Shown here in pieces: positions 1,106 to 34,560 of a stretch of DNA of 34,560 bases (the stretch's first letter is position 1; every line of letters begins with the position of its first letter). A program made the position numbers and the translations under genes. The stretch covers positions 1 through 34,560 of IMG/VR virus record IMGVR_UViG_3300017698_000040; one strand, written 5' to 3'. Under the pieces are notes generated by a model, which saw nothing but the letters and a program-made list of their open reading frames with translations, was not told where the DNA came from and did not search any database. The DNA comes from a virus.

Positions 1106-1116
1106 ATTCAACCCTC

Positions 1117-1215
1117 TCAACTTAGCAGTTCTTCTTTTATTGGTGTGGTAAATAAGACTTCCCTGTCACCATCTAAATACCCTATAGCGTATCCATTTTT
1201 AAATATATAAACCAC
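1117..1215 (-). CDS. Possible mini-ORF (32 aa, VVYIFKNGYAIGYLDGDREVLFTTPIKEELLS)
   Basis: A GTG start at 1213-1215 lies 6 nt after a GGAGG SD, directly downstream of the tail-fibre stop. The ORF ends inside the endolysin SD. It is below the track threshold. Confidence 0.3.
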   Translation of the reverse strand: MVYIFKNGYAIGYLDGDREVLFTTPIKEELLS

Positions 1216-6700: not shown

Positions 6701-6935
6701 CTTGTGATGCTTCTTTTACTGCATCAAAAACACCACCTGCTATTTGACGTGGTGTTTCAATTATCCCACGCCCGATATCAGCAGCAATCTTGCCAGGTGA
6801 GAAAGAAAAACTCTCCGCGCCAGGGTCAGCTATTGCGGCTTGTGGTGTTTGAGCTGCTCTAAGCCTCTGTGCTGGCGTTAGCTGCGATGTATTACGTCTT
6901 TGCAGGTATTCACCTGTCAAATCATTGGTTGGCAT
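3708..6935 (-). CDS. Internal virion (ejection/core) protein, gp16-like by size and position (1075 aa)
   Basis: This is the largest ORF and is the last of three genes between the nozzle protein and the tail fibre, as in T7-type virion modules. The start has an AAAGGA SD and the stop is TAATG-coupled to the fibre gene. No catalytic motif was recognised. Confidence 0.7.
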   Translation of the reverse strand: MPTNDLTGEYLQRRNTSQLTPAQRLRAAQTPQAAIADPGAESFSFSPGKIAADIGRGIIETPRQIAGGVFDAVKEASQASDSLLSAISVPSVLQLTNKKGEFDLDLVSREEFESRGGETPLSGVEVKDPESTTGNLVRGVAQFLTGFLPATRAIKGVKAASVVGKAAKAASAGAAADVIVFDPHEERFSNLVQEFPALQNPVTEYLAADPEDSEAEGRFKNAVEGLGLGALTEGFFFAAKGVRANRRTKITKKAAQEETAQIERLADVEADERGLVPTEKSEPEFKQFDDTEDPAFKVGSKPAGKERALNINTDRLDTEEDVVKLIDGVADKFSKDINEARREIITREETEKLADDLGMSVEGLLQRRRGEAFNAEQAVAARKILVASGENLIKLAKEAKAGAEVDVLKFRKAMSRHHAIQAQVSGLTAEAGRALGSFNIVARSAKEQERMIKEALEAGGGAENSRTLAGQLAQLEGPHQINTFVKQASGAKTKAMIYEAWINGLLSNPSTHTVNVLSNSIVAGWAVAERKVASVIGGGLDFQNIPEGEAAAQAFGMVQGTKDGMRLAWKALKTGEPEDVITKVEAQGHRAITAENLNLSGTAGRFADFVGEAVRVPGRFLTAGDELFKSIGYRMELHAQAFRQATGEGLQGDDLARRVTEIIENPPENLDLLAIDASRYQTFTKPLEEGGQALQNFVQKTPGARLIVPFIRTPVNIMKYARERTILAPLSKRVREEVAAGGARRDLALAKIATGSMIMAAAADYTLSGQVTGGGPKNPQMKARLRETGWQPYSIKVGDEYFSYSRLDPVGATIGLAADISEIIGQTEDADALDLATSSVVAAAQNITSKTYLSGVSEFFDVMSSVSADPEDNNKRARRWVERFAGSIVPSGVAGLERVVSPELEATQGILEKIKSRIPGFSDDLPPRRNIFGEPIVLSGGLGPDIMSPIYTSENKKDPVADEIVAQKTLLRMPRNVIDGVELNSHQYDKYIRLYAGENNRFVKNPLKRELTELFRKPIYQSATEGQEGGKSTLIRAVFESYRNAAKQVLLEEDTRLFLDVQNLKREKAIKLGAR

Positions 6936-8538
6936 TTACAGCATCCTTTCTGCTTTTGTCGAATGCTTGTATATTATCACGAAGCTGTATCAATCTTTCA
7001 ACCTTTTGAAACTCAAAGTTGTAGGTATCGTCATCAATTTGGTTTGACAAAATTGCAGTGTTCAAAAGTTCAAGCGCCTGATTAAGGTCTTGCTTATTGC
7101 CAAACATCGGGTTTGATGCTCTGTCGAACTCATCTTTCCCCACCAATTCATCAGCAACCGTCCATTCATCTTCACCAGCGAGAACCCTCTCAGAGAACTC
7201 ACGCCTTGAATTTGCAAGCCTCTTCTCTGACTCCTGATCTAAAGCCCCAAATGGTCCGGTAACCTTCATTGATTGAGTGATAAACCCTTCTGCACGTTTA
7301 ACTGAGCTTGTTTTTAAGATTGATTCGTCATCGTCTTCTTTATCGTTTGCAGCAAGAAGGCTTGCAGCTGTTGCTTCGGTTAGATTTGTCCCAGCATTCG
7401 CCATAATATCACCACGCATGTCTTGCCCCCCCCTGATTGAATCCTGAATGCGCGTTACAAGCGACCAATCATCAACACCTTTACCGCGAGTGTTAAGGGT
7501 GTTTGTAAGTTTCGTTGCTTGCTCTTGAGAGATTTGACGGTTGTTAAGTGCTGACATAACGTCTTGGACCGTACTCGTTCCTGAGATTACACCAGAGAAC
7601 AATTCAATTGATTTGGACTTTTGCCCCTGCTTTACAAGCTCTTGCTCTGTGTCTTCAAGTTTATTATGGAGCGAAAGTGATTCATTTATCTCTGAAGTCA
7701 TTGCCGTGATAATTTCGTCATGCTCCTCAATAGTGAACCCCTTCGGAACCTTCTCTCGAAATTTTATTATTGCTTCAACTGCACCGTTATAGTTACCATC
7801 GGTCATCATACTCTTAACACCACCGATAATTGTCTCTCTAGTTGCCTTCAGTTCAGCATCACGCTTTTTAATAGCCATTTCTGGGGCAGTCATGATGCCA
7901 GATTCAACCTGTCCATCGTAAATTGCAAACAAATCCTGTAGGCTCTCAGCAGATCCGAGCATGTCACCACTTCTTGCTGCGGTTAGGGATTTATCTAGTA
8001 ATGACTGAGCAGCAAGTTCAGTTTCTGCTGTTGCAATCTCCCTTTGCTTCTGTATTTCGTTGGTCTGTATTTTAATTCTAGTGTTGCTAATTTTGCTATC
8101 GATATCCTGTTGGACAAGTTGACGAACTGATGGGTCAACGTTTTTAATTATAGCGTTCCGATAACTTGTTATCTGATCATTAAAGTTAATGAGGTTATCA
8201 GGGTTTTCTGCTGCGATCCGACCAATGGCCTCACGGTTATCATTGTCAAGAGATGCAAGATACGCATTTTTTAATGCTTTATTGTGGGCCTGTGTCTCGA
8301 TACTTCCAAAAAAGCCTACACCTTTAAACTCTGGAGCCTGTGTGATATCTCCTTCTTTTGCCAATGTAACTTGCTCTGCTGATCTGATCCCTCTTGCCTG
8401 TGCCAATTCACCCGATTTTTGAATCGCTTGCTGCTTAAAGCCCTCTAATTTATCGGCAAGTGAAAGTAGTCCAGATGCTGCTCCTGAACGTGGGTCAATC
8501 GTCTGAAGTTGAGTTTTCTGGTTGAATCGTTCAGCCAT
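6922..8538 (-). CDS. Internal virion protein, gp15-like by position (538 aa, alpha-helical, charged)
   Basis: ORF track. It is TAATG-coupled to the upstream 145-aa gene and overlaps the downstream gene by 14 nt. Its composition is typical of podovirus core proteins. Confidence 0.65.
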   Translation of the reverse strand: MAERFNQKTQLQTIDPRSGAASGLLSLADKLEGFKQQAIQKSGELAQARGIRSAEQVTLAKEGDITQAPEFKGVGFFGSIETQAHNKALKNAYLASLDNDNREAIGRIAAENPDNLINFNDQITSYRNAIIKNVDPSVRQLVQQDIDSKISNTRIKIQTNEIQKQREIATAETELAAQSLLDKSLTAARSGDMLGSAESLQDLFAIYDGQVESGIMTAPEMAIKKRDAELKATRETIIGGVKSMMTDGNYNGAVEAIIKFREKVPKGFTIEEHDEIITAMTSEINESLSLHNKLEDTEQELVKQGQKSKSIELFSGVISGTSTVQDVMSALNNRQISQEQATKLTNTLNTRGKGVDDWSLVTRIQDSIRGGQDMRGDIMANAGTNLTEATAASLLAANDKEDDDESILKTSSVKRAEGFITQSMKVTGPFGALDQESEKRLANSRREFSERVLAGEDEWTVADELVGKDEFDRASNPMFGNKQDLNQALELLNTAILSNQIDDDTYNFEFQKVERLIQLRDNIQAFDKSRKDAVNANQ

Positions 8539-8975
8539 TATTTACCCCCGCCACTGAAGGAGGGTGAGGAAGCTGCTATTTTGCTAAAATCACTAATCAA
8601 TCCAATTGCTGCCCCAGATTCTGCGGCCTTTTTAGCAATCGTTCCCCTTGTTCTTGTTGTCAGTGTTGACAGCTGGGACATGAAGAGATCGCGCTGTGTT
8701 GCTTCTTCTTCCCTTGAAATGTCTTCCTGAAGAATAGCAAGAGGTGATCCTTCAAACGCTGCTATTCCACGCGAACCTGATGTTGCTGTCTGGCTTGCTA
8801 AGGCTCTCGCTAGGGATTCCTTCCGGTCTGATTCACGTTGGATAGTTGCAAGTTCTTCCTGCTTTGCAGCCGTTTCTGATTCTATCTGCTGAATCTTACC
8901 GGCGGTTCTCTGCTGGGAGGCTTGCATTAAGCTTGTTCCAGCTGAAATTATTAATGGTATTGCGGCTACACCCAT
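8538..8975 (-). CDS. Internal virion protein A, gp14-like (145 aa)
   Basis: A hydrophobic N-terminus (GVAAIPLIISAGTSL) is followed by Q/A/S-rich helices, as in small internal virion proteins of T7/phiKMV-type phages. It lies directly after the nozzle gene. Confidence 0.6.
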   Translation of the reverse strand: MGVAAIPLIISAGTSLMQASQQRTAGKIQQIESETAAKQEELATIQRESDRKESLARALASQTATSGSRGIAAFEGSPLAILQEDISREEEATQRDLFMSQLSTLTTRTRGTIAKKAAESGAAIGLISDFSKIAASSPSFSGGGK

Positions 8976-8982
8976 ATCAACC

Positions 8983-11004
8983 TCACGTCTTCACTTCGAG
9001 GCCGATGTTTAATAAATTAAACGGCATCGGCGTGTCTTGCGTTATTGTTACTTGAGCTTCAAGGCTCCAACCTAAAAGGTGAATCCTTTTTATTCCCGTT
9101 TGCGGGATAGGTGCGTCAAACTGATCTTGTCCAATTGTCCTATCTGCAAGCCTTTGGTTATTGATAATAACACCATTAGACTCAAATAGTTGAACAGAAA
9201 CACGAGCAATCTTTTTCTTACTGGATGCGTTTGGGCCGTTCTGCAGATTAATGTTTAATGGCAACGTCTTAACTGTTGGGAGAAATTCAAGTCCGGCTTC
9301 AATCGTGTCAGCCGTTCTTCCTATCGTTATTGCCCCAGAAGAAACAACCGCATCGGATTGAACAGCACCATCAGCCTTTACTTTTACTGTCTCACCTTCG
9401 AGATGATCAAGCCCCGTTAAGGTGTCAGATGCAAGCCCTGTTTTCCTGACCGCTGAATCAGTGTTAAGAAGGTTGTTTTCTTTCTCGATATAATAAACTG
9501 TGCTGCCGTTTATTGTTCTCTCAACCAGAATATTCAGCTCATTATCGACAACAGCAACGGACTTAATCAGCCCATCAGTTTCAACCCTTGTAAACCCTGC
9601 AACGTCTTCAGATGACAACGTGTTGAATACTGTCAGTTCGCCGTTTGCATTGAGGATATAAACATAGTTTGCGTCTGTTGATTCCGTTCCCCTACTAACA
9701 CTCATTTTAATAGGGTCATTAATCAAATGTGGAGATAGAAATGAAATGCTTCTTGATTGATTTGCCTGAAACTCGTTGATGAATACAAATTGGACAACTG
9801 CCTTTCCTGTTCTCTGGACAAAAAGACTTACACCTTCAAGAGTTACAGGTCTGACACGCTTTGTTCCTAAGTTGCTTTGAGGTGACACAGCTACGTTTTC
9901 TGGAGTTATCGGGGATTCAGGGATGAAGAATTCACCGCCAGAAGTAAATATCTGTAGTGTCCTATTTGAAAACACCGCCTCAATTGCGTTTACCTGATCA
10001 GTGTCAAGGGTTGCCTCTATCGACTCATCAGCAAAAGCTTTTCTATTTTTGAAGTTGAAGAAATCACCGGCCCTTGATCCCCATATTGTGGCAGGTCTTG
10101 TTTTAGAGCCGCCAAACCACAAGCGGCCCTCATGGAAAGTGCATGATACCGGCCACCCGCGTGTAGCAGACCATGTATCTTCATCTTTTCCAGTTCCAGC
10201 TTGCGTCTTTAACGTTGTCGCTTTAAAAGAAACGCTAGATGTTATGATAGGTGTGACACTAAGATCGTCCCAATCGTTGGCAGAATCACCACTGAATGTC
10301 ACAGTAATAACTCCTGCCGCCCTTACTGAAGATATACCTGTTGTGCCAGTGTTGATAAGGTCTTGGAGTGCTGCTGAAATGTCGCTTGCAACATCATTGC
10401 CCCAGACAACTTCTTCAGTGAGAAGCCCCTCAAGGGAAAGCTTAAACCTATCACCGTCTTGAAAATTTGTGAAAGTGAGTTGCTGGATCTCATCCGTTGG
10501 AACAGGACTAGAACCATCGTCAAAATTAAACTGGGGGATATTCGTTAACCCTAAAACATTAATCGACCAGTCGGTGTCGCTTGTTCTTGTTATCCTTTGT
10601 GGTTCAACATCTGGGTGCGTAATAATGACAGTATCAGCAGACTGAATATAATCAAAATCAGCAATCTGTGACAGTGTGTATGGTGTCACAAGATAATCGT
10701 TTCCAGACCCGTTTATATTTGTCTGGAGGATTCCCTCTTTGTAAATCTGCATTCTCAGCGGGGTGAACACAACGAGATAGTTTTGTTCAACGTTAAACGA
10801 AAAGTTCTCCAGCCTTCCGGTGTCAAGCGCTTCTCCCAGAAACTCAAAACCAGGCCTCTTCTTCACTCCACCTTGCGGGATTGAAAGAACGTTTGTAGCC
10901 TCTGCTAGTCCACTGTAATATGCTTGAAGATCGATCCTGCCAACAAGTAGCGGGTCAAGCTCTCCCCTGTTCATACTGCTCTGGAATGTCCAAAGATCGG
11001 CCAT
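8983..11004 (-). CDS. Tail tubular protein B / nozzle (T7 gp12-like, 673 aa)
   Basis: The N-terminus MADLWTFQSSMNRGELDPLLVGRIDLQAYYSGL..GGVKKRPGFEF follows the conserved gp12-family opening. It is TAATG-coupled to the gp11-like gene. Confidence 0.8.
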   Translation of the reverse strand: MADLWTFQSSMNRGELDPLLVGRIDLQAYYSGLAEATNVLSIPQGGVKKRPGFEFLGEALDTGRLENFSFNVEQNYLVVFTPLRMQIYKEGILQTNINGSGNDYLVTPYTLSQIADFDYIQSADTVIITHPDVEPQRITRTSDTDWSINVLGLTNIPQFNFDDGSSPVPTDEIQQLTFTNFQDGDRFKLSLEGLLTEEVVWGNDVASDISAALQDLINTGTTGISSVRAAGVITVTFSGDSANDWDDLSVTPIITSSVSFKATTLKTQAGTGKDEDTWSATRGWPVSCTFHEGRLWFGGSKTRPATIWGSRAGDFFNFKNRKAFADESIEATLDTDQVNAIEAVFSNRTLQIFTSGGEFFIPESPITPENVAVSPQSNLGTKRVRPVTLEGVSLFVQRTGKAVVQFVFINEFQANQSRSISFLSPHLINDPIKMSVSRGTESTDANYVYILNANGELTVFNTLSSEDVAGFTRVETDGLIKSVAVVDNELNILVERTINGSTVYYIEKENNLLNTDSAVRKTGLASDTLTGLDHLEGETVKVKADGAVQSDAVVSSGAITIGRTADTIEAGLEFLPTVKTLPLNINLQNGPNASSKKKIARVSVQLFESNGVIINNQRLADRTIGQDQFDAPIPQTGIKRIHLLGWSLEAQVTITQDTPMPFNLLNIGLEVKT

Positions 11005-11582
11005 TAGTCAATAAACCCTCTCCCCGACAAACGGACATCTATGAACGGGCTGTCAACCATTGGCTGTTGCGGTCTACCTTGGGAATCAATAGCTTTTGCC
11101 CTCTGAAGCATATCCCTGTACTTTTCTTCGTAGAAAGTTGCCTTTGTCTGGCTCTCCGTAACCAGCATTGCAAAATCAGAAGCGAGACGGTATTCAATCG
11201 TCTTTGTTACGTGTGGTGGTAGGCTTGTTTCATCGACTTGATAAACATATCGAGCAAGCAGTTCATTTTGATTTGAATAGAGAAGGTCACCAACAATAAT
11301 ATAGTTAGAATGCGGCATGATAGCCCATAGTCTAATAAGATCTGGCGGGACTTGAAACGCATATTTGAAATTTGTTAAATCTGCTGGTTGCTGTGAAAGC
11401 CTGCTCAACATTTGTTCTTTGAATGCAAAGCTCCAAGGGTGCTCACTCATCACTTGACGATAGGTTTCAGGGTATAGGTTTGCTGCTGCCTGTGCCCCTG
11501 CTCCTGGATCTGAAAATGACGAGATAGGATCATCACCAATCAGGATTAATGCGTTGCTTGCAATGTCTATTGATGTTGGCAT
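11004..11582 (-). CDS. Tail tubular protein A / adaptor (T7 gp11-like, 192 aa)
   Basis: IASNALILIGDDPISSFSD....AANLYPETYRQVMSEHPWSFA parallels T7 gp11 (VNDILASIGEPPVSTLEGD...RQIQSRGWTFN). Size and position also match. Confidence 0.8.
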   Translation of the reverse strand: MPTSIDIASNALILIGDDPISSFSDPGAGAQAAANLYPETYRQVMSEHPWSFAFKEQMLSRLSQQPADLTNFKYAFQVPPDLIRLWAIMPHSNYIIVGDLLYSNQNELLARYVYQVDETSLPPHVTKTIEYRLASDFAMLVTESQTKATFYEEKYRDMLQRAKAIDSQGRPQQPMVDSPFIDVRLSGRGFID

Positions 11583-11591
11583 AACTTCCCC

Positions 11592-12368
11592 CTACTCAAA
11601 TACTATGTGACCTTCCACGACCACCCCAAGGTGTATCAACCCTGTCAAATTGTCCTGGACTAACATTTCTAAGTTCTCATTCGGTGCGATTCGTAAAGCA
11701 ACGCCGATCTTATTTTGTCCGGCAAACGTTAATCTCGCATGAAATCCATCAACGGCTTGTGCTGGGTTGCTAGCCACTGTCGGGTCGTAGTCATAGCATA
11801 TCCCTTTTATTTCTCCGTTAGTTTTCACATTAAAAATATTGTTTATTGTACCGTCCGTACGCCTAAATGCTAAGCCCCTTGTTAATGCTGGGAGATTGCC
11901 AAACTTATTTAAATCAACCGCGCTATTAGTCTCACAGTTGAATATTATTCGAGTTATATCGACGGTCAAATTCAGAGCAGGGTCATCTATCCTGAGTTGA
12001 TAAATAGCCGGTGTTCCACTACCGTCAACGTTCATATTGTCATTCCCTACACTGACCTGAACCCCAGCTGGAAATGAAAAATCAAGCTGAGAGTCAAGCG
12101 TTATAGTGTTGACTGCGATGGCCAACACCTTGCCAGAATAGAACCTATTATTTATTGAGTCTAAAATTCTAAGGTACTGACCGACAACAAAACCAGCGGA
12201 AGACACAACATTAATAGTATATGTCTCTGCTGTTGCTGGAATACTCAATGTTGTTGACGCAACCTTTAGAACGAGTGGGATAATAATAACAGGGGTTGTC
12301 TGATCCTGAATATTTACAGGAACACCACCGTTTGACTCTATTATCGCTCCCCTCTGGTTCCTTATCAC
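11592..12368 (-). CDS. Virion-module protein of unknown role (258 aa, beta-rich)
   Basis: ORF track. A GTG start overlaps the upstream stop (GTGA), and an AGAGG SD lies 7 nt upstream. It sits between the capsid and adaptor genes. Confidence 0.7.
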   Translation of the reverse strand: MIRNQRGAIIESNGGVPVNIQDQTTPVIIIPLVLKVASTTLSIPATAETYTINVVSSAGFVVGQYLRILDSINNRFYSGKVLAIAVNTITLDSQLDFSFPAGVQVSVGNDNMNVDGSGTPAIYQLRIDDPALNLTVDITRIIFNCETNSAVDLNKFGNLPALTRGLAFRRTDGTINNIFNVKTNGEIKGICYDYDPTVASNPAQAVDGFHARLTFAGQNKIGVALRIAPNENLEMLVQDNLTGLIHLGVVVEGHIVFE

Positions 12369-12667
12369 TGATTAACCTCTGTTTCCCATATGTTGACGCT
12401 AACTGGTGAGACGGTTGAACTCTTCAGGCACCTGAACTTACCAGGGCCAACGATAGTTATAAAAGAATGTTTGTTTGTTATTTCCTGCAAGACGCCGTTA
12501 AGATATAGCGACTGCCATTCTGTGCCGTCATGAGTGTATTGAATCTGGACACCCTCGTCATCTTCGAGAGCACCAGCAGTTATGGTGACAGTTCCAACGG
12601 GTTGAAATGGAAGACTAAAAGCAAGTAGGGTTGTTGCTGCAATGATTTCTACATTTTTAGTGCTCAT
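12365..12667 (-). CDS. Virion-module protein of unknown role (100 aa)
   Basis: ORF track. I prefer the ATG at 12665-12667, 6 nt after an AAGGTGG SD. It is the first gene after the post-capsid terminator. Confidence 0.65.
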   Translation of the reverse strand: MSTKNVEIIAATTLLAFSLPFQPVGTVTITAGALEDDEGVQIQYTHDGTEWQSLYLNGVLQEITNKHSFITIVGPGKFRCLKSSTVSPVSVNIWETEVNQ

Positions 12668-12688
12668 CAACAGCCACCTTTAAGGAAA

Positions 12689-14863: not shown

Positions 14864-15156
14864 TATTCACTCTCCACTCTCTTAATTGTGAGGATAATTC
14901 CTCTGATAAAACGTTTCATTCCTTCGTTGATCCCAATCGTAACCAAGTCAGCGCCTTCATCCGCAGTTGATGACATAATTAAGGACTCTTTCCATATTTC
15001 AAGAAGCTCACGCCCTGATTCAGTTTGTGCAAAGGCCTTATGGATAAGATAGTCAATCTTTTGTCCTTTTGCCTCTGCGTCTTTCTGGAATTTTACAGCT
15101 TCATCCATGCTGATTGGGTTGAGGTCGTCATAAAAGTTGCGGTCATCATTCCTCAA
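14863..15156 (-). CDS. Hypothetical protein between portal and scaffold (~97 aa)
   Basis: ORF track (14863..15162). The GTG at 15162 abuts the AAGGAGG SD, whereas the TTG at 15154-15156 is 5 nt downstream of it. The start is therefore uncertain. Confidence 0.6.
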   Translation of the reverse strand: MRNDDRNFYDDLNPISMDEAVKFQKDAEAKGQKIDYLIHKAFAQTESGRELLEIWKESLIMSSTADEGADLVTIGINEGMKRFIRGIILTIKRVESE

Positions 15157-16687
15157 GTCCACCTCCTTGTTCTAATTGTTGTTGAGCTGCTGCTTGGACT
15201 TGGTCTGCTAGCATCTTTCTTTCTTCATCAGTCCTGACGAGATCAGCAGGGACACCAAGTTTTTGTTGCCAGAAGCGAGGTAAGTCTTCAATTTTAACAG
15301 AACCTGCAACGACCTCCTCTGGTAATTGTGTGATATTGCTAAACCATAACTGGCTATTCTGGAAATCCTCAAGGTCTTCAGCTTTCGCCAATGGGGAGGT
15401 TTGTTTTATTGTTACTTCTTTTCCATCAACCTTAATCTGTGGAATCTTCCCAAGGCTTTGAAGGATGTCAACCACGGCAGCAACTAAAGGCTCAACCAGC
15501 TCAGTTTTTAAGCGGCCAATCGATGCACCGGCATTTTTCAACATCTCCTGTTGCCTGATCATGACCTCTGTTGCGCTTCTTACCGGGTCTGTTACCTCTC
15601 CAAGTGGATCGACAAATAAAGCCTTTCGTATTCCTGCTTGCAGATCTTCAAGAACAAAGTTGCCAAGACCCAAATCACCAGATCGATTAAGTGGTGAAAG
15701 TGTTGGATTTTGGTTGTTGTTGCTCTTGACTGGAATAATAGAGCCTGGAGCAATTCTAACCGTATGGGGATTGAATACGCCATCATCAACACCGGTATAG
15801 ACGCCAGCCATTTGTAGGGCTGCATTCTCAAGAATGAATTGCTTGACCTTGTTGACAGTACGGATATCGGGTAGCATCTGGATAATTGGCCCACGTCCGA
15901 ACACCTCGCCCGATACAACATGCCAACGGAATACAATCAGACGCTTTGAATTAAACGACTGCTCAAAGATTGAAGATTTTGACGGTTCATGAATAACAAC
16001 TTGCCAGTACTTACCGTCTTCAGGGTTAAACAGCATCCCATTCAGGATGTCAACTTTTCTATTCGGCTGTTTCTCAACCATGTTCTGAAGCTGTTGCGGT
16101 AGTTTTGCCCCTGGCCAAACCCTAGTCAAGTGCCGTGCTGCTACCTCCTGCTTTCTCCATGTTGATTCAATGGCCCCGCCAGGCGGGAGTTCAGGATAAA
16201 GTTCGGCAAGTGGAACGTTGGAGAAGTTAAGAACCTCACCTTTGTTGAACTCACCTTCTTCAATCTGGATCGCCCCAGTACCAACTCCAAGATCAGAAAA
16301 TGCCGGGGATATTTCTGTTGAAAAATTTGAGTGGTTGAGATGTGAAAAAAAGGTGTCAGTTGTTTCCTCCAACAGCTCATCAGACCTGTCCTTATCTTCA
16401 TCAGGAACTTCATCGCCAGCCTTTAGATTCATCCACTGTTGCCAGCTTGGGACAATTGACCCCTGAATCCTAGATGCGAATTGTTCAAGCCCAAGGATTG
16501 CCGTTGAATCGAAGACATGTCGATTCTTTCTCTGCCCCGGTGAACGCAATCTGAAAGTTTCGCGTTGTGGGTTTGAGAAGTCAAACGCTTCCTGATGTAA
16601 AGATCTGAACAGCTCCCACCGGTCACGCGCTTCTGAGAATCGCTTGATCAAGTCAGAGACTGATCCTAGCCCTTTTGGGATTGCCAT
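15146..16687 (-). CDS. Portal (head-tail connector) protein, podovirus T7 gp8-like (513 aa)
   Basis: Size, position upstream of scaffold and capsid, and the N-terminal pattern RF.EARDRW..FRSLHQEAFDFSNPQRE are typical of the Head-tail_con family. Confidence 0.85.
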   Translation of the reverse strand: MAIPKGLGSVSDLIKRFSEARDRWELFRSLHQEAFDFSNPQRETFRLRSPGQRKNRHVFDSTAILGLEQFASRIQGSIVPSWQQWMNLKAGDEVPDEDKDRSDELLEETTDTFFSHLNHSNFSTEISPAFSDLGVGTGAIQIEEGEFNKGEVLNFSNVPLAELYPELPPGGAIESTWRKQEVAARHLTRVWPGAKLPQQLQNMVEKQPNRKVDILNGMLFNPEDGKYWQVVIHEPSKSSIFEQSFNSKRLIVFRWHVVSGEVFGRGPIIQMLPDIRTVNKVKQFILENAALQMAGVYTGVDDGVFNPHTVRIAPGSIIPVKSNNNQNPTLSPLNRSGDLGLGNFVLEDLQAGIRKALFVDPLGEVTDPVRSATEVMIRQQEMLKNAGASIGRLKTELVEPLVAAVVDILQSLGKIPQIKVDGKEVTIKQTSPLAKAEDLEDFQNSQLWFSNITQLPEEVVAGSVKIEDLPRFWQQKLGVPADLVRTDEERKMLADQVQAAAQQQLEQGGGLEE

Positions 16688-16688
16688 T

Positions 16689-16904
16689 TTAACCCCCTAG
16701 AGTCTTGGATAAATCTTGTTTAGTCGCCACAAGGAGTGAGCGCCCACCGCGACCGGCAGTTGTTGCCGCTTTCCGCCTTTCAATGTCACCCTCTTCCTCT
16801 GCAAGTTTCTGCTGCTCTAACTGCTTCTGTCTGGCAATCTGTGTGCGCTGATCTCTTGCTGTCTTTTTTGCTTCATCTGCACCGGGACTAAGTAGAGTAC
16901 CCAT
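16689..16904 (-). CDS. Small charged protein (72 aa), paralogue of the 114-aa gene
   Basis: I place the start at ATG 16902-16904, 5 nt after an AAAGGAG SD and 1 nt from the upstream TAA. It shares QKQ.E..KLAE....I.RR.A.....G..GRSLL.A with ORF 16906..17250. Confidence 0.7.
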   Translation of the reverse strand: MGTLLSPGADEAKKTARDQRTQIARQKQLEQQKLAEEEGDIERRKAATTAGRGGRSLLVATKQDLSKTLGG

Positions 16905-16905
16905 A

Positions 16906-17250
16906 TTAACTCCTTTTTGCAGTAAGCAAAGAGCGTCCAAGAAGTCCGCGACTTGACACCGCTTGTCTCCTTGCTATCTCGTCTTTTGCCTCTGCAAGCT
17001 TTTTATCTTCACTCTGTTTTTGCAGTGCGATTAAGTCTTCTTGCTCTTTTGCCAACAACTTCTGCTGCTTTATCAACACGGCAGGATCTTCAGGAATTAT
17101 CTTACCTGGGTCTGCTATTTTCCTCCCGATGTCGCTACCTGTTGTCTTCTCGATGATCTTCCCCCCAGGGTCAATCATTCCGCCGATGTCCTTTCCTCTA
17201 TCACTAGGATCAAGAACGGTCTTAAATCCAGACTTTAATTTATCTCCCAT
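16906..17250 (-). CDS. Small charged protein (114 aa), paralogue of the 72-aa gene
   Basis: ORF track, with an AAAGGGG SD. The C-terminus is QKQSEDKKLAEAKDEIARRQAVSSRGLLGRSLLTA. Confidence 0.7.
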   Translation of the reverse strand: MGDKLKSGFKTVLDPSDRGKDIGGMIDPGGKIIEKTTGSDIGRKIADPGKIIPEDPAVLIKQQKLLAKEQEDLIALQKQSEDKKLAEAKDEIARRQAVSSRGLLGRSLLTAKRS

Positions 17251-17251
17251 A

Positions 17252-17641
17252 TCAAACCCCTTTCAGCTTTTTAAATAACTGGTATGGCGTCCACGTCCAA
17301 AAACTTCTAATGCCAAGTAACGATTTTACCACCTCAACACAATTAAATACACAAAATGTCCACCTCTGTTTGTTTGTGTCTATAGTAACTTTCACCGGGA
17401 CTATAACAGCATCATCACAAGTGTATGAACGGGGGTGAGGGTAATCATCAACCAATACTGTCTCTATGCGAGTGTGGCTAAATAGCGGATTAATAATTGT
17501 CCAAAACTGACCACCTTCACTTTTTCGCATCACATAAACATGCTGAATTTCAGAGTCAAGAAACTTAAACAACCAATGTTTTGATTTTGACTTAGTAAAA
17601 ACAATAAAACACTTCACTTCCTCCTTATATCCACAATCCAT
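17252..17641 (-). CDS. LRAT / H-rev107-like (H-box/NC motif) permuted NlpC/P60 papain-fold protein (~129 aa)
   Basis: KHWLFKFLDSEIQHVYV places two His residues 12 apart, as in H-rev107 (RHWAIYVGDGYVVHL). FNCVEVVKSLLG parallels NCEHFVNELRYG about 67 residues later. There is no signal peptide. The start is either ATG 17639-17641 or TTG 17647. Confidence 0.45.
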   Translation of the reverse strand: MDCGYKEEVKCFIVFTKSKSKHWLFKFLDSEIQHVYVMRKSEGGQFWTIINPLFSHTRIETVLVDDYPHPRSYTCDDAVIVPVKVTIDTNKQRWTFCVFNCVEVVKSLLGIRSFWTWTPYQLFKKLKGV

Positions 17642-17643
17642 CT

Positions 17644-19365
17644 TCAATTAAACCTGATCTGACTTGCGCCGGTTCCAAGGTTGTTAAGTTGTGAATTACC
17701 GTTGAGTCTTGACCCACCGCCTCCAGATGGTGGTGGGTTGTAACCTGCTGTGAAGTCAAACGCCTCAATCTCTGCATTTGTGTTGCCGATTTCGTTTCCG
17801 AGATATTCCCAGATGTACTCGGTTAACGGGTAGTCTGTATGATCGTAGGCTGTGTCTGTGAACCCTCGTGTTGTGTCGTTTGTTGCCGGGTACGCCCCGC
17901 TAGGCATAGTGTACGACGCGGCAAAGAGATCACGTATTTCGTTGTCGTAAGCCCACGGCCATAAATCGGTTGCTGTTTTAGAGTCCCATCCGGTGTCACC
18001 GTGCCAAGTACCTTCAACGCCAATACGCTTGAGTATGTGGGCCCCGACCATGCCGCTTGACGTTCCTCCGTCGTAGCGATTAGATGTCGTCTCAACTCGT
18101 GGGAGATATAAAAAGTCTGAAGCAAAAGCAACTTGGTTGCTTCCTCTTGCGGTAGCGCCACTAAATGAATTATTTGAGTCAACAGAAAAGCTACCTGTAT
18201 ACGACCCCGCCGTAAGATCTTTAAACAAGCTATTTGTCACACTGTCTGTTAACGACGCCCCGTCATAGGCGAAAGCTAAACGTTGATCTCCGAAAGTATT
18301 TTGATCAAAAATGTCCGTACCTCCTGAATCGGTTGACCCTTTCATTTTCAACGGAACGCTCTCGGTGGGGGTCGTCATCGTTGATTTGTTGCCCCAAAAA
18401 AGAGAGTTGCGTATTTTTAGATTCTGTCCAACAGACCCTTCTAGGTTTATTTGCATAAACCAGTCAATTTCATTGGCGAGGGTAATACATCCGTCAATAC
18501 TGATGTTGTGATTCGACTTAAAAATATACCAAGGATTGTGCTTATCAGTGTTCGACGCCCCAGAAGACGAATTGCTATCGATCAGGATACCGTTCTGGTA
18601 GGCGACGTGATGTGAGCCCTCAAGACCAGTATTGTTATTCCCATAAACTCCGACTAAACTGAACGGATCGCCTGATACCGTATAGTCTCCACGGCCAACA
18701 AAACGGCGGAAAATTATATGGTGAGATTGATCCGCCGTCCCACCAACTCTGAAAGCGTATCTATAGCCACCCGTAAAGGCTATGTCCTCAAATGTAATGT
18801 ACGAGCTATTCCCCCAGGCGGCAAAGCCTGAAGCACTACCGGTGCTACTCTCGACTCGCAAGAATAGTCGCTTAAAAAGTACATGGTCGGCGCCGTCGGC
18901 GACAACGTTTGATGCGTCTGAGTCATCACGATTAATAAGAATAAAACCGTCAACTTTTATATAGCTTCCGGTAACACTTACAAATCGGGCGTTCGAGTCC
19001 CAATTACTATCGGTGTTTGCTCCTGAATCTATCGTGACCGCAAACGGATTCCTTGCCCTGATAGCAGTTAAGCTCCCCGCGGCCCCATCTGGGATTGTCA
19101 AGAGCCCGAGAAGCCCGTCTTGTCTCCCGATAGCATTTACTAGTCCTGAATATACCCCATCGTCAACTATGACCTCATCACCGCCAGACATCTCAGCAAT
19201 TGCAGCGCCTATCGTTCCGTAGCTGTTAGCGTCTGTCCAATCATCAGCGATAGATGCGCCGATAGTCTTTGTCCCTGTTGTCTTAACGTGGAACACTGCT
19301 GCATTGACGTTACATGTAATTGATAGAAAAACAACGACGGATAGAAGTATTTTATATCTTAACAT
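17644..19365 (-). CDS. Secreted right-handed beta-helix protein (573 aa), putative polysaccharide lyase/hydrolase
   Basis: The signal peptide is MLRYKILLSVVVFLSITCNVNA|AV. The opening FHVKTTG...GTIGAAIAEMSGGDEVIVDDGVYSG is typical of beta-helix enzymes, and N/G/S/D-rich repeats follow. A GAGAGG SD is present. Confidence 0.75.
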   Translation of the reverse strand: MLRYKILLSVVVFLSITCNVNAAVFHVKTTGTKTIGASIADDWTDANSYGTIGAAIAEMSGGDEVIVDDGVYSGLVNAIGRQDGLLGLLTIPDGAAGSLTAIRARNPFAVTIDSGANTDSNWDSNARFVSVTGSYIKVDGFILINRDDSDASNVVADGADHVLFKRLFLRVESSTGSASGFAAWGNSSYITFEDIAFTGGYRYAFRVGGTADQSHHIIFRRFVGRGDYTVSGDPFSLVGVYGNNNTGLEGSHHVAYQNGILIDSNSSSGASNTDKHNPWYIFKSNHNISIDGCITLANEIDWFMQINLEGSVGQNLKIRNSLFWGNKSTMTTPTESVPLKMKGSTDSGGTDIFDQNTFGDQRLAFAYDGASLTDSVTNSLFKDLTAGSYTGSFSVDSNNSFSGATARGSNQVAFASDFLYLPRVETTSNRYDGGTSSGMVGAHILKRIGVEGTWHGDTGWDSKTATDLWPWAYDNEIRDLFAASYTMPSGAYPATNDTTRGFTDTAYDHTDYPLTEYIWEYLGNEIGNTNAEIEAFDFTAGYNPPPSGGGGSRLNGNSQLNNLGTGASQIRFN

Positions 19366-19374
19366 CTCGCCTCT

Positions 19375-19911
19375 CTAATGGGCTGCGTAATTAGCCACAG
19401 TCATTGTAGCTTCGCGCGTTGAACTACTTGTATACAGAGTTCCACAAGTTTCTGCACCGAATGCATGACCTGATCCAGCATCATAGAAGTAAGACATAGC
19501 CGCTGTGTTATGATACTGGATATAATACGTTCCGGCATCCAAGAAAATAGGCGTTGACCACGTAATCTCCCACCATGCAGCAATATTATTCATAACTGCG
19601 GATGAGTTGCTACAAGAACCGACCTGCGTCCCGTTGGTCTCATATATCGCCATTGAGAACGTAGCATTATTAGCCGACTTACTGTAAACATATCCATGCG
19701 AAATAGTTAGCCCGCCCGCTGGGACTGTTATCGTAATACGACGTCCTGAGGTGCTTCCGCCAACCTCAGTGCTTCCGATAGTGGTGTATCCCAACTCCGT
19801 ATCTGGATCACCGCCACCACCACTTTGATAGACCATGGGTATAGGGTACGTCCCTTGACCAGCAAAGCACAGTGATGGTATCAGTAAGGCTAGTATTAAA
19901 AATAATCTCAT
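19375..19911 (-). CDS. Secreted jelly-roll (DUF4082/LamG-like) protein (178 aa)
   Basis: The signal peptide is [17 protein letters not shown]|GQ. It is ATGA-coupled to the upstream gene. The pattern ELGYT..G......ITV.AGGLTIS....Y........F.MAIY..NG........[16 protein letters not shown] resembles glycan-binding jelly-roll domains. Confidence 0.65.
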
Positions 19912-20927
19912 CTCAACACACTCCAGTTTAATGTTATGGCTCCTGGAGTAACAGCAGACCCAGATTTATTACAAACCTTAAAATTTACATTGTCTGCTGA
20001 TGGATACGCCACGATATAAACCAGATCACCTACCGGGCTATATCCTGTCACACCAGTTGGATCGCTATTAAAGCCCCAGTTAATTGTGTCTGTTGTAAGC
20101 GTACCTGTTGCCGTTGATGTAACCACCGTTGCGCAAGCACCATCAGAAATTGATACTGTCCCTAGAGCTGATGTCCCACTGGCTATTGATGATGCATATA
20201 ACGTTGCATTGGTAGCGTCATTGCTATATGTATCAACACCGACACCATCGAAAACTCTTAAAGAGTCGTCAGTAGCATTGTATGTGATGTGTCCTGATGC
20301 AACACTTGGGGCTTCATCGGCCAGGATGAAATCAAGGTTAAGAGTGTCAGTCCACTTACTACCAGTAGGTTCGGCTGAATCAGCTACCCTGATAGTCCCA
20401 TCTGAGCCTATAGGTAGTCTGGCATCAGTTGTACTATAAGTATATGTATCGCCTTTCGTTGTTAACGGGCTTGCCCCTCCTCCAGCCGGTGTTGCCCAAT
20501 TTCCATCACCGCGCCAGAATGTTGACGCGCTTGCACCGATTCCACCATTAAGACTAGTTACAGGTAGATTGCCTGTGATATCTGATGCCAGATCTACAAA
20601 TCCCAATGTCAACACTTGGCCTAATATCGTGATGTAGTCTCTTCCCGCAGCGATTGTAACATCAGTTGAATTATCAGTCCCGGCAGGATCAACACCTAAA
20701 TTAGTTCTGGCTGTCGTGTCGTTTGTCAAATCAGACAAGTTATTTGTTGACAACATATCGCCGCCGCCCGGTATTGATTGCCAGGACGCAGTAGAACCAT
20801 CAGTATTAAGGAAATTACCAGCCTGGCCTGATTGACTTGGAAGTGATCCCCCACCTATTGGATAACCCTGATCTGAACCAGCGAAAGCCATCGAACACAA
20901 AAAAAGGAGAATGATAATTGCTCTCAT
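19908..20927 (-). CDS. Tail-fibre-like protein carrying an N-terminal signal peptide (339 aa)
   Basis: The signal peptide is [16 protein letters not shown]|GS. The motifs [28 protein letters not shown] and [37 protein letters not shown] are motifs I associate with phage tail-fibre proteins. An AAGGGGGAA SD is present. Confidence 0.7.
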
Positions 20928-20928
20928 A

Positions 20929-21321
20929 TCAGTTCCCCCTTATTGATACAGTGAAGCCGCTTGTTGTCCCTGCTTCCGTTTTTGTAATAATTATCTTTGC
21001 CCTTGGTGCCATGATCCTACTATATAGCGTTCTATCTGTCCCACCACCGTCTGCAATGGTCGTTGCAACCGGAGCCTCGCCTAGATAAGTATCATCAGTA
21101 GATGACAGCACTGGAACAATCTGCACAGTTGCGCCCTTGTCTATCACAGTATCTACAAATACGTCGACAATATTTCTTGTGTCCACGAATTCTGTGTACG
21201 TTGGGGCAGCGTCTGTCAGCTCTGTGGTGTTTACCCCAACTAGCAACCACGATTTAGAGTCTGCAAACCCTTGATCTGCAAACAAAAGGACAATACCAAT
21301 AACCAATAATACTTTTTTCAT
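20929..21321 (-). CDS. Small secreted beta-rich protein (130 aa precursor)
   Basis: I place the start at ATG 21319-21321, after a GGAGGAG SD, rather than at 21402. The signal peptide is [20 protein letters not shown]|DS. Confidence 0.7.
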
Positions 21322-21352
21322 TATGCTCCTCCATTTGTAAAACTTATCACCA

Positions 21353-22831
21353 TTATTCGAACACGTCAAAGCCGACCTGCGCTTGCACAGGCTTAGCTCC
21401 AAATCGACTATCTTTTATTCTTACCGCGTTTAACCCCTCTCCCTCTCCGTAAAGGGCATATTCGAGAGCTTCGACTGGGTGTGAGTACTCATTCTTGTCT
21501 GGTTCGTCTGTGTATTTTTCACCTGTTACCATAATGCGACGATAACAGAAACCACCTTGCAGACCCTTCCTAATCATCTTAGCTTTCGGGAGTAGGATAA
21601 ATCTAGGTTTTCCGTCCATGCAAAGTTCTTTGATTGGCTCCTCAAGAGATGCACGTCTAAGCATTGGATTGTTGTCTGCTGTTGGATAACAGGTTATTCC
21701 AGCCCCCTGCAGGATTTGGAATGGGGTGTCATCTGTTCCCTGCCCCCTGTTGTTGCCGGAAGGATCACCCCAGCCACGGAAGGTATAGCCTTTATAATTC
21801 TCCTCGATGTATTTCTTTACAGCAGGAGCGAATGAGGCTGCTGATACGTTCTCACTTGTGAATTCGTCAAATACAACCCACCGATTATAAATTGATTGCT
21901 TCTGAGTAAAGGCACAAGCAGGGGTGCGGCCGAAGTCAAAGCCAAGGATAATTGGATCTGTTTTGTTTGGCTCGAAATCCATATCCAGACAGTGGACTGA
22001 ATCAACATAATACGGATGAACCGGCTTACCTTCCGAAACAAATCCATACTCGTTAGCAAGGTTTACCTTTATCCAGTCATCTGTCTTACCGGACATGCCA
22101 CGCTTATAATAATCAGGTGGTAGGTTGTGAATGTTCTCGGCGTTTGGATTTACCTTCCACGCCCCAGCTCTGCCGGTCACTCCCCCTGGCTGTTTGTGGA
22201 ACTTCCAGCCCTCCGGCTTTATTTCTTCAGCATGCTTGTAATACCAGTGGTCTTCATCTGGTGCGTTTGTGTCTCCAAGCATTCCGTGTTGAGTGCAGAC
22301 AACGCCTTCTTTTCTCGATGGATACCGGCCATGTCGAAGATCAAGCATATCTATAACTGACTTCGATAGCTCCTTAACCTCGTTCAACCATATCCATGTT
22401 GCTTGATGCCCCCTGGCCTTCTTTACATGATCAGGACGGTCAAACGCGATGAAGATCACTTCTGACTCAACAATGGTTCCATCTTCAAGCTCGAACAATG
22501 GTCTGTGGGTTGGTGGCTCCTTACTGCCCTGTTTAAACTCTCCTAGTTCACCATGGATTTCAAGGTAGTCTTTGATTGTGGTTGAAAACAGCTCTGAATA
22601 GGTGTTACGGACTGCGATAAATCTGGTTAGGCGCTTGTTGAAGTGTTTATGACCGACAACTTTTACAGGCTCTTGTTCACACATTAAATCAAACATTTTT
22701 AGAATGGTTTGAACTGTCTTACCAGAGCCGAGAGGCCCCATAATAAAAGAAACAGGAGCGCGGCAATCTGCGTACTCCTGCAATACCTTCCCTTGTGGCT
22801 TTAAAACATATTCAATCGTTTTCGCCATCAA
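21353..22831 (-). CDS. terL: Terminase large subunit (492 aa)
   Basis: Walker A is GPLGSGKT and Walker B-like is WIWLNE. A GDTN coupling motif and a C-terminal nuclease-type ILGFDFG are present. The gene overlaps the TerS 3' end. Confidence 0.9.
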   Translation of the reverse strand: MMAKTIEYVLKPQGKVLQEYADCRAPVSFIMGPLGSGKTVQTILKMFDLMCEQEPVKVVGHKHFNKRLTRFIAVRNTYSELFSTTIKDYLEIHGELGEFKQGSKEPPTHRPLFELEDGTIVESEVIFIAFDRPDHVKKARGHQATWIWLNEVKELSKSVIDMLDLRHGRYPSRKEGVVCTQHGMLGDTNAPDEDHWYYKHAEEIKPEGWKFHKQPGGVTGRAGAWKVNPNAENIHNLPPDYYKRGMSGKTDDWIKVNLANEYGFVSEGKPVHPYYVDSVHCLDMDFEPNKTDPIILGFDFGRTPACAFTQKQSIYNRWVVFDEFTSENVSAASFAPAVKKYIEENYKGYTFRGWGDPSGNNRGQGTDDTPFQILQGAGITCYPTADNNPMLRRASLEEPIKELCMDGKPRFILLPKAKMIRKGLQGGFCYRRIMVTGEKYTDEPDKNEYSHPVEALEYALYGEGEGLNAVRIKDSRFGAKPVQAQVGFDVFE

Positions 22832-23186
22832 ATCTCTTCCTCGTGGTGGTTACCTTTAAAGTACCACCAAGATCAACCTTCTCAGTAAAATCAGCTTCCG
22901 ACTTCCCTAGTAGCTCTGAAGCTTTCAACCTGTCACGCATTGACTCTTCATCACTCTTCATGGTTTCCGTCCAAAACCTTTGTCTATCCTGCCTTGTTGC
23001 TATCAGTGGTGCGTTTTCTTCGTCCTGTCTCGCCCTAATATGTGCCATGATGTTAGGGTTTGTTACCATTAACCTTCTTGCATAAGACCTGTTTAAGCCA
23101 GCAGAATCAGCGGCCTTACCAATATCACCATCATATGCAGCTACAAAAAGCTCCCACTTTCTTGTTAGTTTTCTCAACGCTACCAC
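22812..23186 (-). CDS. terS: Terminase small subunit (124 aa, Terminase_2-like)
   Basis: LTRKWELFVAAYDGDIGKAADSAGLNRSYARRLM.NPNI..I matches the HTH opening of the small-terminase family. It lies directly upstream of TerL. The GTG start at 23186 is uncertain. Confidence 0.8.
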   Translation of the reverse strand: MVALRKLTRKWELFVAAYDGDIGKAADSAGLNRSYARRLMVTNPNIMAHIRARQDEENAPLIATRQDRQRFWTETMKSDEESMRDRLKASELLGKSEADFTEKVDLGGTLKVTTTRKRFDGEND

Positions 23187-23187
23187 T

Positions 23188-23262
23188 TTATGAACTCGCT
23201 ATTAACAGAATAAGGATAGAAACGAACAAAACTGATACGTCTACTGTACATATTTCATTCAT
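23188..23262 (-). CDS. Possible hydrophobic mini-peptide (24 aa, MNEICTVDVSVLFVSILILLIASS)
   Basis: An AGGAG SD lies 6 nt before the ATG at 23260-23262. The TAA stop is 1 nt before the TerS GTG. It is below the track threshold. Confidence 0.3.
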   Translation of the reverse strand: MNEICTVDVSVLFVSILILLIASS

Positions 23263-34281: not shown

Positions 34282-34560
34282 CTATTTGCTTTTTCTATTT
34301 GCGATTGATTCGATACCTTTTCCAACTTGCCTTAACCCTGCATATGACCAAGGTAGCGCCATTAAAACAAGCATAACCTCCATACTTGGTATGTCTTTGA
34401 ATCCTACATATACAATGGCAGCAATAAGGCTCAGCCAACTCTGAAGCGGCCTTGTCCACCTAACGAGTACATCGTCAGCTTTGTCAGCGTTTCGGATCGT
34501 CTCTTGTGTTTCGTGATGAGACTTCTGTTCGTCCTCAAGGTCAAGCTTAGTCATTTCACG
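34282..34560 (-). CDS. 3-TM holin, C-terminal part (same gene as 1..342; the last 99 nt of the window duplicate 1..99)
   Basis: The track ORF MTKLDLEDEQ...RWTRPLQSWLSLIAAIVYVGF...MLVLMALPWSYAGL has no stop upstream in frame before the window end. The frame is continuous with 342..1. Confidence 0.75.
   Translation of the reverse strand, partial: REMTKLDLEDEQKSHHETQETIRNADKADDVLVRWTRPLQSWLSLIAAIVYVGFKDIPSMEVMLVLMALPWSYAGLRQVGKGIESIANRKSK
34462..34560. repeat. Terminal direct repeat, copy 2 (identical to 1..99)
   Basis: Direct comparison of the two window ends. Confidence 0.95.

Follow-up and report, generated by a model that had tools for sequence, protein, structure and literature searches.

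An insertion of four genes with predicted export signals between the terminase and portal genes of a podovirus, and its possible action on host envelope glycans

Why would a podovirus carry four consecutive genes with export signals between its large terminase subunit (TerL) and its portal gene? The window analyzed here, all 34,560 nucleotides (nt) of IMG/VR record IMGVR_UViG_3300017698_000040, is a complete phage genome assembled as a circle; its ends (1-99 and 34462-34560) are identical over 99 bp, leaving ~34,461 unique bases. Its structural genes occupy the minus strand and form a module of BPP-1 / T7-like podovirus type. We observed that TerL stops at 21353 and that the portal gene starts at 16687, 4.67 kb away. 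Most of this distance is occupied by genes A, B, C and D, which we confirmed as the four consecutive, tightly packed and apparently translationally coupled minus-strand genes with Sec-type signals that an initial annotation had described from the sequence. Lying between TerL and the portal gene, they belong to the late operon, as that annotation had also proposed.

We compared the locus with the best 80 of 436 TerL relatives in IMG/VR, whose TerL is ~70% identical. In ~70 of these 80, a homologue of gene E follows TerL within 0-40 nt, succeeded by 300-900 nt of small genes and then the portal gene, and the TerL-portal gap measures ~0.6-1.0 kb. None of the 80 carries A, B, C or D. Because ~70 of the 80 relatives run from TerL through E to the portal without A-D, these genes (17644-21321, 3.7 kb) are an insertion exactly between TerL and E. 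The same comparison takes away the fifth, "LRAT-like" gene that had been counted with the island, since this gene is E, which directly follows TerL in the relatives that have no A-D. Within the insertion, a single nucleotide separates the stop of A from the ATG of B, B and C overlap in an ATGA (-4), and 9 and 2 nt lie between C and D and between D and E, respectively; Shine-Dalgarno (SD) sites are present among the tightly packed genes. No promoter-like or terminator-like sites were found at the borders of the island or inside it, and the GC content, GC3 and codon usage of A-D are the same as those of the core genes. As a four-gene unit, A-D was found nowhere else: when metagenomes were scanned with D for loci closer to the island, the matches were all distant, and a megablast of 15000-23200 against 50,697 phage records returned no near-identical phage DNA. 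Proteins A-E have no significant match in Pfam, NCBIfam or PADLOC, and PHROGs gave one match of unknown function, on B.

All four N-termini read as Sec signal peptides, in which a K/R n-region and a strongly hydrophobic core precede an AXA-type site. Cleavage is predicted before DS in A, before GS in B, before GQ in C, and after MLRYKILLSVVVFLSITCNVNA and before AV in D. We scored N-termini with a crude scan for hydrophobicity, charge and the residues at -3 and -1, and only A-D pass it among the ~45-50 open reading frames (ORFs) of the genome (h ~3.0; 2.97-3.13 for B, C and D, with A fitting by eye from ATG 21321). In 80 related phage loci, 7 of 938 ORFs (0.75%) pass, never two of them adjacent; four signal peptides in a row are thus far beyond chance. 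The signals are also conserved. A hydrophobic signal-type N-terminus is present in 9/9 listed D homologues (P0002-P0010). The closest homologues of A, the homologue of C and those full-length homologues of B that we read have one as well, and the segment persists among homologues with identities of 40-50%. For each of the four proteins the signal peptide is retained in the closest relatives, and close relatives with the same genes and no hydrophobic N-terminus, which the initial annotation had named as evidence against export, did not appear. Signal-less relatives comprise about half of the A family and one remote D-like protein. A lipoprotein signal was rejected by inspection, the cysteines of the signal peptides lying outside any lipobox (-3 L/V/I, -1 G/A/S). 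An extracytoplasmic character is further visible in a conserved cysteine pair in B and another in C, and in the PKD, TIG, TSP3 and MopE Cys-rich modules of cassette neighbours described below. Taken together, the signal-peptide pattern and its conservation, a twin-arginine translocation (Tat) signal at the equivalent place in a related locus, the cysteine pairs, the extracellular-type domains and a signal-less relative that starts at the mature end of D strongly support export, and we regard it as very probable that A-D leave the cytoplasm.

The largest of the four proteins points to a function. An AlphaFold2 (AF2) model of D is a right-handed beta-helix, with a mean confidence (pLDDT) of 65 and values above 85 in the N-terminal half. 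In a Foldseek search its top match was Pel9A (1ru4; E=2.8e-6, TM 0.42/0.59), and 41 PDB entries matched at E<=1e-3, mostly PL6, PL9, AlgE and GH87; the best PDB matches also include rhamnogalacturonan (RG) lyase, PL6 alginate and chondroitin lyases, AlgE epimerases, fucoidan lyase and RbmB. Because of this model and these matches, D may act like a secreted polysaccharide lyase or epimerase, and its earlier description as a beta-helix enzyme-like protein holds. A sequence profile of D matched the PDB in the N-cap only (E=0.014), and neither Pfam nor NCBIfam gave a match that would place D in a curated family. In the homologue alignment R220, R221, R225, D227, Q257 and N258 are invariant and K275 is nearly so; a C-terminal module is also conserved (Table 1).

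Relatives of D are rare. Among 5.8 billion proteins nine were detectable, eight of them ~40-44% identical and one 29% identical. They occur in two kinds of context. Some lie in bacterial exopolysaccharide (EPS) loci together with GT4 glycosyltransferases, Wzy, polysaccharide deacetylases and ATP-grasp proteins, one such locus holding three paralogues. Others lie in phages: between the coat gene and the Phage_stabilise (PF11134) gene of a P22-like phage, and inside a run of five to six signal-peptide proteins in an SU10-adaptor phage. A more remote D-like protein of 575 aa is encoded between the putative TerL and the portal of a phage with an SU10-like major capsid protein (MCP) (L081:4697-6424, IMGVR_UViG_3300049802_000013). 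It has no signal peptide and begins M-ALVHVTPTGTRASGASTADDWTDAN, which corresponds to the predicted mature N-terminus of D (57% identity over 46 aa). That this protein starts at the mature end of D supports the cleavage-site call and suggests that the signal is a modular add-on. As a separate observation, one EPS locus (L082, ena ERZ25039461 contig_92980, 4466-11617) contains two full D paralogues and a more distant Pel9A-like beta-helix gene; the paralogues adjoin Peptidase_C39_2 genes and a cluster of GT4, Wzy, deacetylase and ATP-grasp genes.

Protein B, with 1387 homologues, is tail-fibre-like, as had been read from its sequence: its central motifs are common to signal-less fibres, and its Foldseek matches in BFVD are phage proteins annotated as tail fibre, tail repeat or collagen-like. 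The PHROGs match mentioned above, phrog_32934, covers aa 142-200 (1.8e-12). No virion-attachment N-domain was recognisable in B, and the fibre-type repeats start directly after the signal peptide. The most conserved part of the protein is its C-terminal domain, a beta-sandwich modelled with a pLDDT of ~88, which shows 81% mean column identity and two invariant cysteines across 12 homologues and always forms the extreme C-terminus. These two cysteines are probably disulfide-bonded. The domain has no match in Pfam, NCBIfam or PDB; Foldseek of the B model against PDB gave nothing significant, the C-terminal sandwich weakly resembling the lectin-like C-termini of tailspikes. Among the best 120 matches, a signal peptide is present in 71 of the 91 proteins that carry the domain, in contrast to 4 of the 29 that do not, and most exceptions are partial or borderline.

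The three full-length B relatives whose contigs we looked up all lie in phage structural modules. The C-terminal domain also occurs in metagenome-assembled genomes, mainly of Acidobacteriota and also of Azospirillum, Gemmatimonas and others; one Azospirillum case adjoins prophage genes, while some copies form the end of very large secreted proteins. Because the domain is terminal in every case, we considered a C-terminal sorting domain of the type IX secretion system (T9SS) and found no support for it, the taxa being mostly Acidobacteriota and Proteobacteria and no family match being found.

We next describe protein C together with the genes that stand in its place elsewhere. Protein C has only one real homologue, P0132 (51% identity). 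This protein, too, has a signal peptide, and the gene after it encodes a beta-helix protein with a signal peptide of its own; in addition, the N-terminal 78 aa of C are 41% identical to the gene directly downstream of the B-family gene (position +1) in the closest B cassette (L090). We surveyed 76 IMG/VR viral contigs that carry the B C-terminal domain. ORF starts were set mechanically in this survey, and the percentages are approximate. Signal peptides were found in 74% of the B-family carrier genes (56/76), 63% of the genes at position +1 (43/68), 52% at +2 (29/56) and 27% at +3 (13/48); upstream, at position -1, the rate was 23% (14/62), and among genes more than three positions away it was 5% (34/658). 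The usual order is a B-family gene, a protein of ~245 aa and a protein of ~500-1,000 aa. These neighbours are mostly unrelated in sequence; what is conserved is their position, their size, the signal peptide and a short motif.

The motif lies directly after the cleavage site of the +1 protein, ahead of a glycine-rich stretch, and reads (G)QG(G)M-GPGPG or P[FW]PGPG (for example in L182:8264-8998 and L171:8282-9019). In loci L136-L215, it is present in 25 of 63 unique +1 proteins, in contrast to none of 152 proteins at +2, +3 and -1. The +1 proteins thus have a conserved N-terminal motif, and their C-termini are variable. Judging by its mature N-terminus, C is a degenerate member of this +1 partner class. 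On an Azospirillum prophage contig of 57,861 bp, present in both GTDB and IMG/VR (L111:7270-8091 and L189), the +1 gene carries a twin-arginine signal, MDRRRFLK, running through MDRRRFLKTAAGL...ARA to a cleavage site that is followed by QGGMGPGPG; here the same motif stands behind a Tat instead of a Sec signal. The third cassette gene often has D-type elements (L094) or encodes another beta-helix or lyase-like protein, and some have PKD, TIG, TSP3 or MopE Cys-rich modules. Cassettes of this type occur in P22-like, HK97-like, Mu-like (Mu-portal), siphovirus and BPP-1-like phages, at varied sites in the late operon, and these phages come from soil, freshwater and marine metagenomes.

In one further locus (L092), BLAST showed no homology between A and the small signal-peptide protein upstream of B, nor between C and the +1 genes. 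We also noted an oddity in locus L087 (logan SRR12447093_44734), where an SU10_adaptor domain (aa 28-217, 2e-19) stands behind a signal-peptide-like N-terminus (3001-3681). The gene heads a run of five to six signal-peptide proteins that is followed by a Wzy_C-like membrane protein, and an export signal on a virion-type domain is unexpected.

An exhaustive search for protein A gave a family of 45 representatives. Its closest homologues (64%, 46% and 45% identity) have a signal peptide, and similar runs start with two of them. Signal-less members, about half of the family, are sited just after head genes. In P0170, such a signal-less A-domain and a homologue (48% identity) of ORF 11592-12368 of the window (minus strand, 258 aa) make up one fused protein. 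This ORF lies between the head genes and tail tube A; the fusion is a Rosetta-stone-type link of A to a structural-module protein. Two of the loci with A homologues are informative about context. In L126, an A homologue is followed by a protein with a B-like N-terminus and then by a signal-peptide protein whose N-terminus looks, by eye and without tool support, like a PL1 pectate lyase. In the P22-like L127 (7179-10774, IMGVR_UViG_3300038682_000061), an M15 endolysin 75% identical to that of the window (755-1120) comes first, then an A homologue and two signal-peptide proteins; the run ends with a 177-aa product that has no family match and appears holin-like. The L127 cassette therefore lies inside the lysis region.

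Taken over the three families, A-, B- and D-type modules occur in cytoplasmic, probably virion, and in exported versions, and cassettes of this type keep appearing in phages and not in host loci. This bears on the proposal of the initial annotation that the island is a captured host surface-glycan locus. For D, whose family is also found in bacterial EPS loci, the proposal keeps at most some support; for the whole island it fails, the examined B contexts being mostly phage or prophage modules and the A contexts all viral contigs, and we ruled out this origin on account of the phage association of the B and A families.

How might the four proteins work? The signal peptides, the fold of D and its relatives in EPS loci make an exported glycan-targeting set, which had been among the first hypotheses for this island, the best reading. 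In this model, A-D would be read within the TerL-to-portal late polycistron and exported via Sec late in infection, folding outside the cytoplasm. B would be a fibre-type protein without virion attachment, ending in its conserved domain; C would be a small partner whose GQGMGPGPG-type N-terminus docks on that domain; D would be a beta-helix enzyme of the polysaccharide-lyase or epimerase type; and A would add a small beta-rich module. The mature set could then attack capsule, exopolysaccharide or another envelope glycan of the host, either from within or once released at lysis, and as a result progeny might escape trapping on debris or matrix, neighbouring cells might be stripped, or receptors might be destroyed. 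A glycan target is suggested by the fold of D, the relatives of D in EPS loci and the fibre- or lectin-like character of B. A role in the lytic cycle is favoured by the late co-expression with the packaging genes, the lack of a detectable integrase and the position of the L127 cassette in the lysis region. We place the chances that A-D form a free, periplasm-matured, non-virion set that binds and degrades glycans of the host envelope late in infection at about even. From sequence patterns we infer that the B C-terminal domain and the +1 N-terminus interact.

Several observations weigh against this reading. The signal-peptide calls come from a crude scan and from conservation, and D itself has no Pfam match, weak matches to PF13229 (Beta_helix) and PF22842 (Pel9A-like) being confined to its homologues. 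Soluble periplasmic proteins need lysis or a further secretion step to reach the capsule. A-, B- and D-type modules also occur without signals, where they are probably virion parts, and a frequent place of the cassettes is between head and tail genes, where one would expect structural ones. The proposed docking of C on B is based on co-occurrence.

A broader reading can be placed beside it. B-family proteins, their +1 partners and the large +2 proteins might form an extracytoplasmic complex of fibre and enzyme that is widespread in tailed phages and so far undescribed; in it, the B C-terminal domain would serve as a docking platform for the (G)QG(G)M-GPGPG sequence exposed by cleavage. Such a complex would be a second assembly line, outside the cytoplasm, built from modules of virion fibres and tailspikes, and its product would coat or strip the host surface or join particles at lysis. 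We offer this as a tentative and somewhat doubtful generalization.

Four other explanations were weighed against the exported glycan-targeting set. That the hydrophobic N-termini are no export signals at all, arising by chance or from mis-called starts or acting as membrane anchors of proteins that stay in the cytoplasm, would fit the use of a crude scan as the only predictor and the absence of the segment from some A relatives and the remote D-like protein. It conflicts with four consecutive signals over a background of 0.75%, with the strong SD before the ATG of A, with the conservation of the segment across homologues 40-50% identical, with the Tat signal at the equivalent place in L111, and with the conserved cysteine pairs and extracellular-type domains of cassette members, and we consider it highly improbable. 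More can be said for a superinfection-exclusion or surface-conversion moron, in which an exported fibre-like protein and an enzyme would cover, trim or alter the glycan that the phage itself uses as receptor, on infected or lysogenic cells, and would thereby keep further phages from adsorbing. The exported proteins include receptor-binding-type modules, D-type enzymes belong to EPS loci, accessory insertions in the late operon are typical of morons such as lambda lom and bor, and the early region of the genome is lambdoid-like (ERF, YqaJ, NinG). Yet the island has no promoter or terminator of its own that we could find, the complete circular genome has no detectable integrase, PADLOC gave no match, and expression with the packaging genes would come too late for most of the infection cycle. 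Such a moron therefore seems rather unlikely to us.

A-D could instead be accessory virion parts that fold and oxidise outside the cytoplasm and, during lysis or afterwards, attach to released particles, serving them as additional fibres or depolymerases. The tail-fibre origin of B agrees with this, as do the conserved N-terminal motif and variable C-termini of the +1 proteins, which recall modular receptor-binding proteins; the signal-less A-domains after head genes, one of them fused to the homologue of ORF 11592-12368; the signal-peptide-like N-terminus of the SU10_adaptor-domain protein in L087; and the frequent position of cassettes between head and tail genes. Against it, B has no recognisable virion-attachment domain, a normal signal-less tail fibre is already present (1231-3708), and the 80 relatives build virions without A-D. 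To our knowledge there is also no precedent for tailed-phage virion proteins that are assembled after Sec export, which further counts against this explanation, and we judge it unlikely. Finally, A-D might be auxiliary metabolic genes whose exported carbohydrate-active products degrade environmental polysaccharide and feed the infected cell. Carbohydrate-active enzymes (CAZymes) of phages and prophages are widely reported (PMC13507307), and D is similar to lyases of alginate, pectate and fucoidan. Being expressed late, along with the packaging genes, A-D would have little time to bring a nutritional gain, the closest relatives of D lie in EPS biosynthesis loci and phage structural modules and not in polysaccharide-utilisation loci, and a tail-fibre-like B with a partner C is unsuited to a catabolic role; we think this explanation quite improbable.

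Gene E, the downstream neighbour of the insertion, more likely starts at ATG 17641. Alignment of nine diverse homologues shows invariant His34, Cys101 and TP.QL, with FNC(V/E) common. Neither Pfam and NCBIfam nor a profile search of the PDB nor hhalign supported its earlier assignment to the LRAT/NlpC-P60 group, of which the conserved His and Cys are left. The profile search of E against PDB gave no match at E<=10, and hhalign against a human PLA2G16 sequence, a weak test, returned a probability of 0.15%.

The remaining genome is consistent with the phage type given above. Further structural genes encode a scaffold, the major capsid protein (PF19821), tail tubular proteins A and B and internal virion proteins; the lambdoid-like early region encodes ERF, YqaJ, SSB, NinG and Dam, and no integrase was found in the complete circular genome. 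The nearest cultured relatives are the Burkholderia phages BcepC6B and KL4, with a TerL identity of 50%. The closest relatives have homologues of the small gene G and, in one case, of its neighbour F. We observed that F and G resemble tandem paralogues, each with a ...RR.A....GR.SLL motif near its C-terminus. ORF 12365-12670 (minus strand, 101 aa), between the capsid genes and ORF 11592-12368, has a weak DUF4183 match and a borderline hydrophobic N-terminus (h=2.34) that is improbable as a signal peptide. Its position matches that of the A-domain in the P0170 fusion; no relation to A was found.

Table 1 Coordinates of the insertion, its protein modules and neighbouring core genes in the 34,560-nt window.
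Feature	Position	Strand	Description
TerS	22812-23186	minus	
TerL (large terminase subunit)	21353-22831	minus	phrog_2, 5.4e-15; upstream border of the insertion
Spacer, 31 nt	21322-21352	minus	GGAGG 7 nt ahead of the ATG of A (21321)
Gene A, 130 aa	20929-21321	minus	predicted signal peptide aa 1-20 (nt 21262-21321); mature domain of ~110 aa without cysteine
Gene B, 339 aa	19908-20927	minus	predicted signal peptide aa 1-16 (nt 20880-20927); tail-fibre-derived
B central region, aa 105-205	20313-20615	minus	tail-fibre-type motifs including PLTTKGD.YTYS..RLP.G..G; common to signal-less fibres P0013, P0014 and P0020
B C-terminal domain, aa 248-339	19911-20186	minus	beta-sandwich with cysteines C265 and C319
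Gene C, 178 aa	19375-19911	minus	predicted signal peptide aa 1-17 (nt 19861-19911); cysteines C100 and C156 conserved
C mature N-terminus, 18 aa	19807-19860	minus	degenerate copy of the (G)QG(G)M-GPGPG motif
Gene D, 573 aa	17644-19365	minus	predicted signal peptide aa 1-22 (nt 19300-19365); beta-helix, polysaccharide-lyase-like
D C-terminal conserved module, aa 418-524	17794-18114	minus	..RVE..SNRY.GG..VGAHI..G..G..G..GW....LWPW.YE..I....RGF...LT.YIWEYLG (invariant columns); common to the third gene of the L094 cassette
Gene E, 129 aa from ATG 17641	17252-17641	minus	core gene; downstream border of the insertion
Gene F	16906-17250	minus	small, K/Q/E-rich; core region, preceding the portal
Gene G	16689-16904	minus	small, K/Q/E-rich; core region, preceding the portal
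Portal, T7-type head-to-tail connector	15146-16687	minus	PF12236, 5e-87
Tail fibre	1231-3708		T7-type N-domain; without signal peptide
M15 endolysin	755-1120		

Taken singly, the ingredients of this locus are known: phage CAZymes with signal peptides, soluble depolymerases, exported morons and Sec-dependent lysis proteins have all been described. Among prophage CAZymes, 5% carry signal peptides (PMC13507307). The CAZyme auxiliary genes of prophages and viruses resemble A-D as carbohydrate-active genes on phage genomes, a minority of which have signal peptides, but they are reported gene by gene as metabolic helpers and not as a conserved multi-gene exported cassette with fibre-like components (PMC13507307). 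We found no published account of a multi-gene exported cassette around a tail-fibre-derived protein, in agreement with the initial annotation, which knew of no described system of this composition, and no description in the literature of the B C-terminal domain or of the GPGPG motif after the cleavage site.

Free phage depolymerases are released at lysis, among them the halo-forming soluble depolymerases and PghP of Bacillus phage PhiNIT1. Like the set proposed here, they are late-made enzymes outside the particle that degrade an envelope polymer and help progeny through capsule or matrix. They are single genes without signal peptides whose products spill out at lysis, whereas A-D are four proteins with export signals, including a tail-fibre-like protein and a conserved partner. 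The lyases and epimerases of EPS operons (AlgL and AlgG of alginate, RbmB of the Vibrio polysaccharide VPS, PL6, PL9) come closest to D: they are signal-peptide beta-helix proteins that act on the cell's own polysaccharide, their fold matches the model of D, and D homologues lie in such loci. In contrast to them, D is phage-borne and has no significant sequence match to a curated family.

Exported morons such as lambda lom and bor are likewise accessory genes for envelope proteins that sit between essential late genes and are absent from close relatives. Classical morons have their own promoter and terminator, are expressed in the lysogen and encode outer-membrane proteins or lipoproteins. A-D differ in that neither a promoter nor a terminator of their own nor an integrase was found, and in that their products are putatively glycan-directed. 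The Sec-exported lysis proteins (signal-peptide and signal-anchor-release (SAR) endolysins, spanins, T4 RI) are late proteins that reach the periplasm via the host Sec system before lysis, and the L127 cassette lies in the lysis region; however, these proteins target peptidoglycan or the outer membrane or regulate holins, and none resembles A-D.

Phage depolymerases and receptor-binding proteins are usually viewed as parts of the virion, made and assembled in the cytoplasm. Here, modules of this kind (tail-fibre repeats, a beta-helix enzyme and a putative small beta domain) bear export signals in a mobile cassette, and cassettes of its type are found in late operons of numerous phages unrelated to one another. 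If they do act on capsule or exopolysaccharide from the periplasm or after release, they would represent a neglected layer of the warfare between phage and host at the cell surface, with progeny escape, receptor destruction and matrix clearing as possible outcomes, and would also be a source of stable, disulfide-bonded proteins that bind and cut glycans. In conclusion, the conserved C-terminal domain of B and the GPGPG motif in the next gene provide a concrete and testable protein-protein hypothesis.

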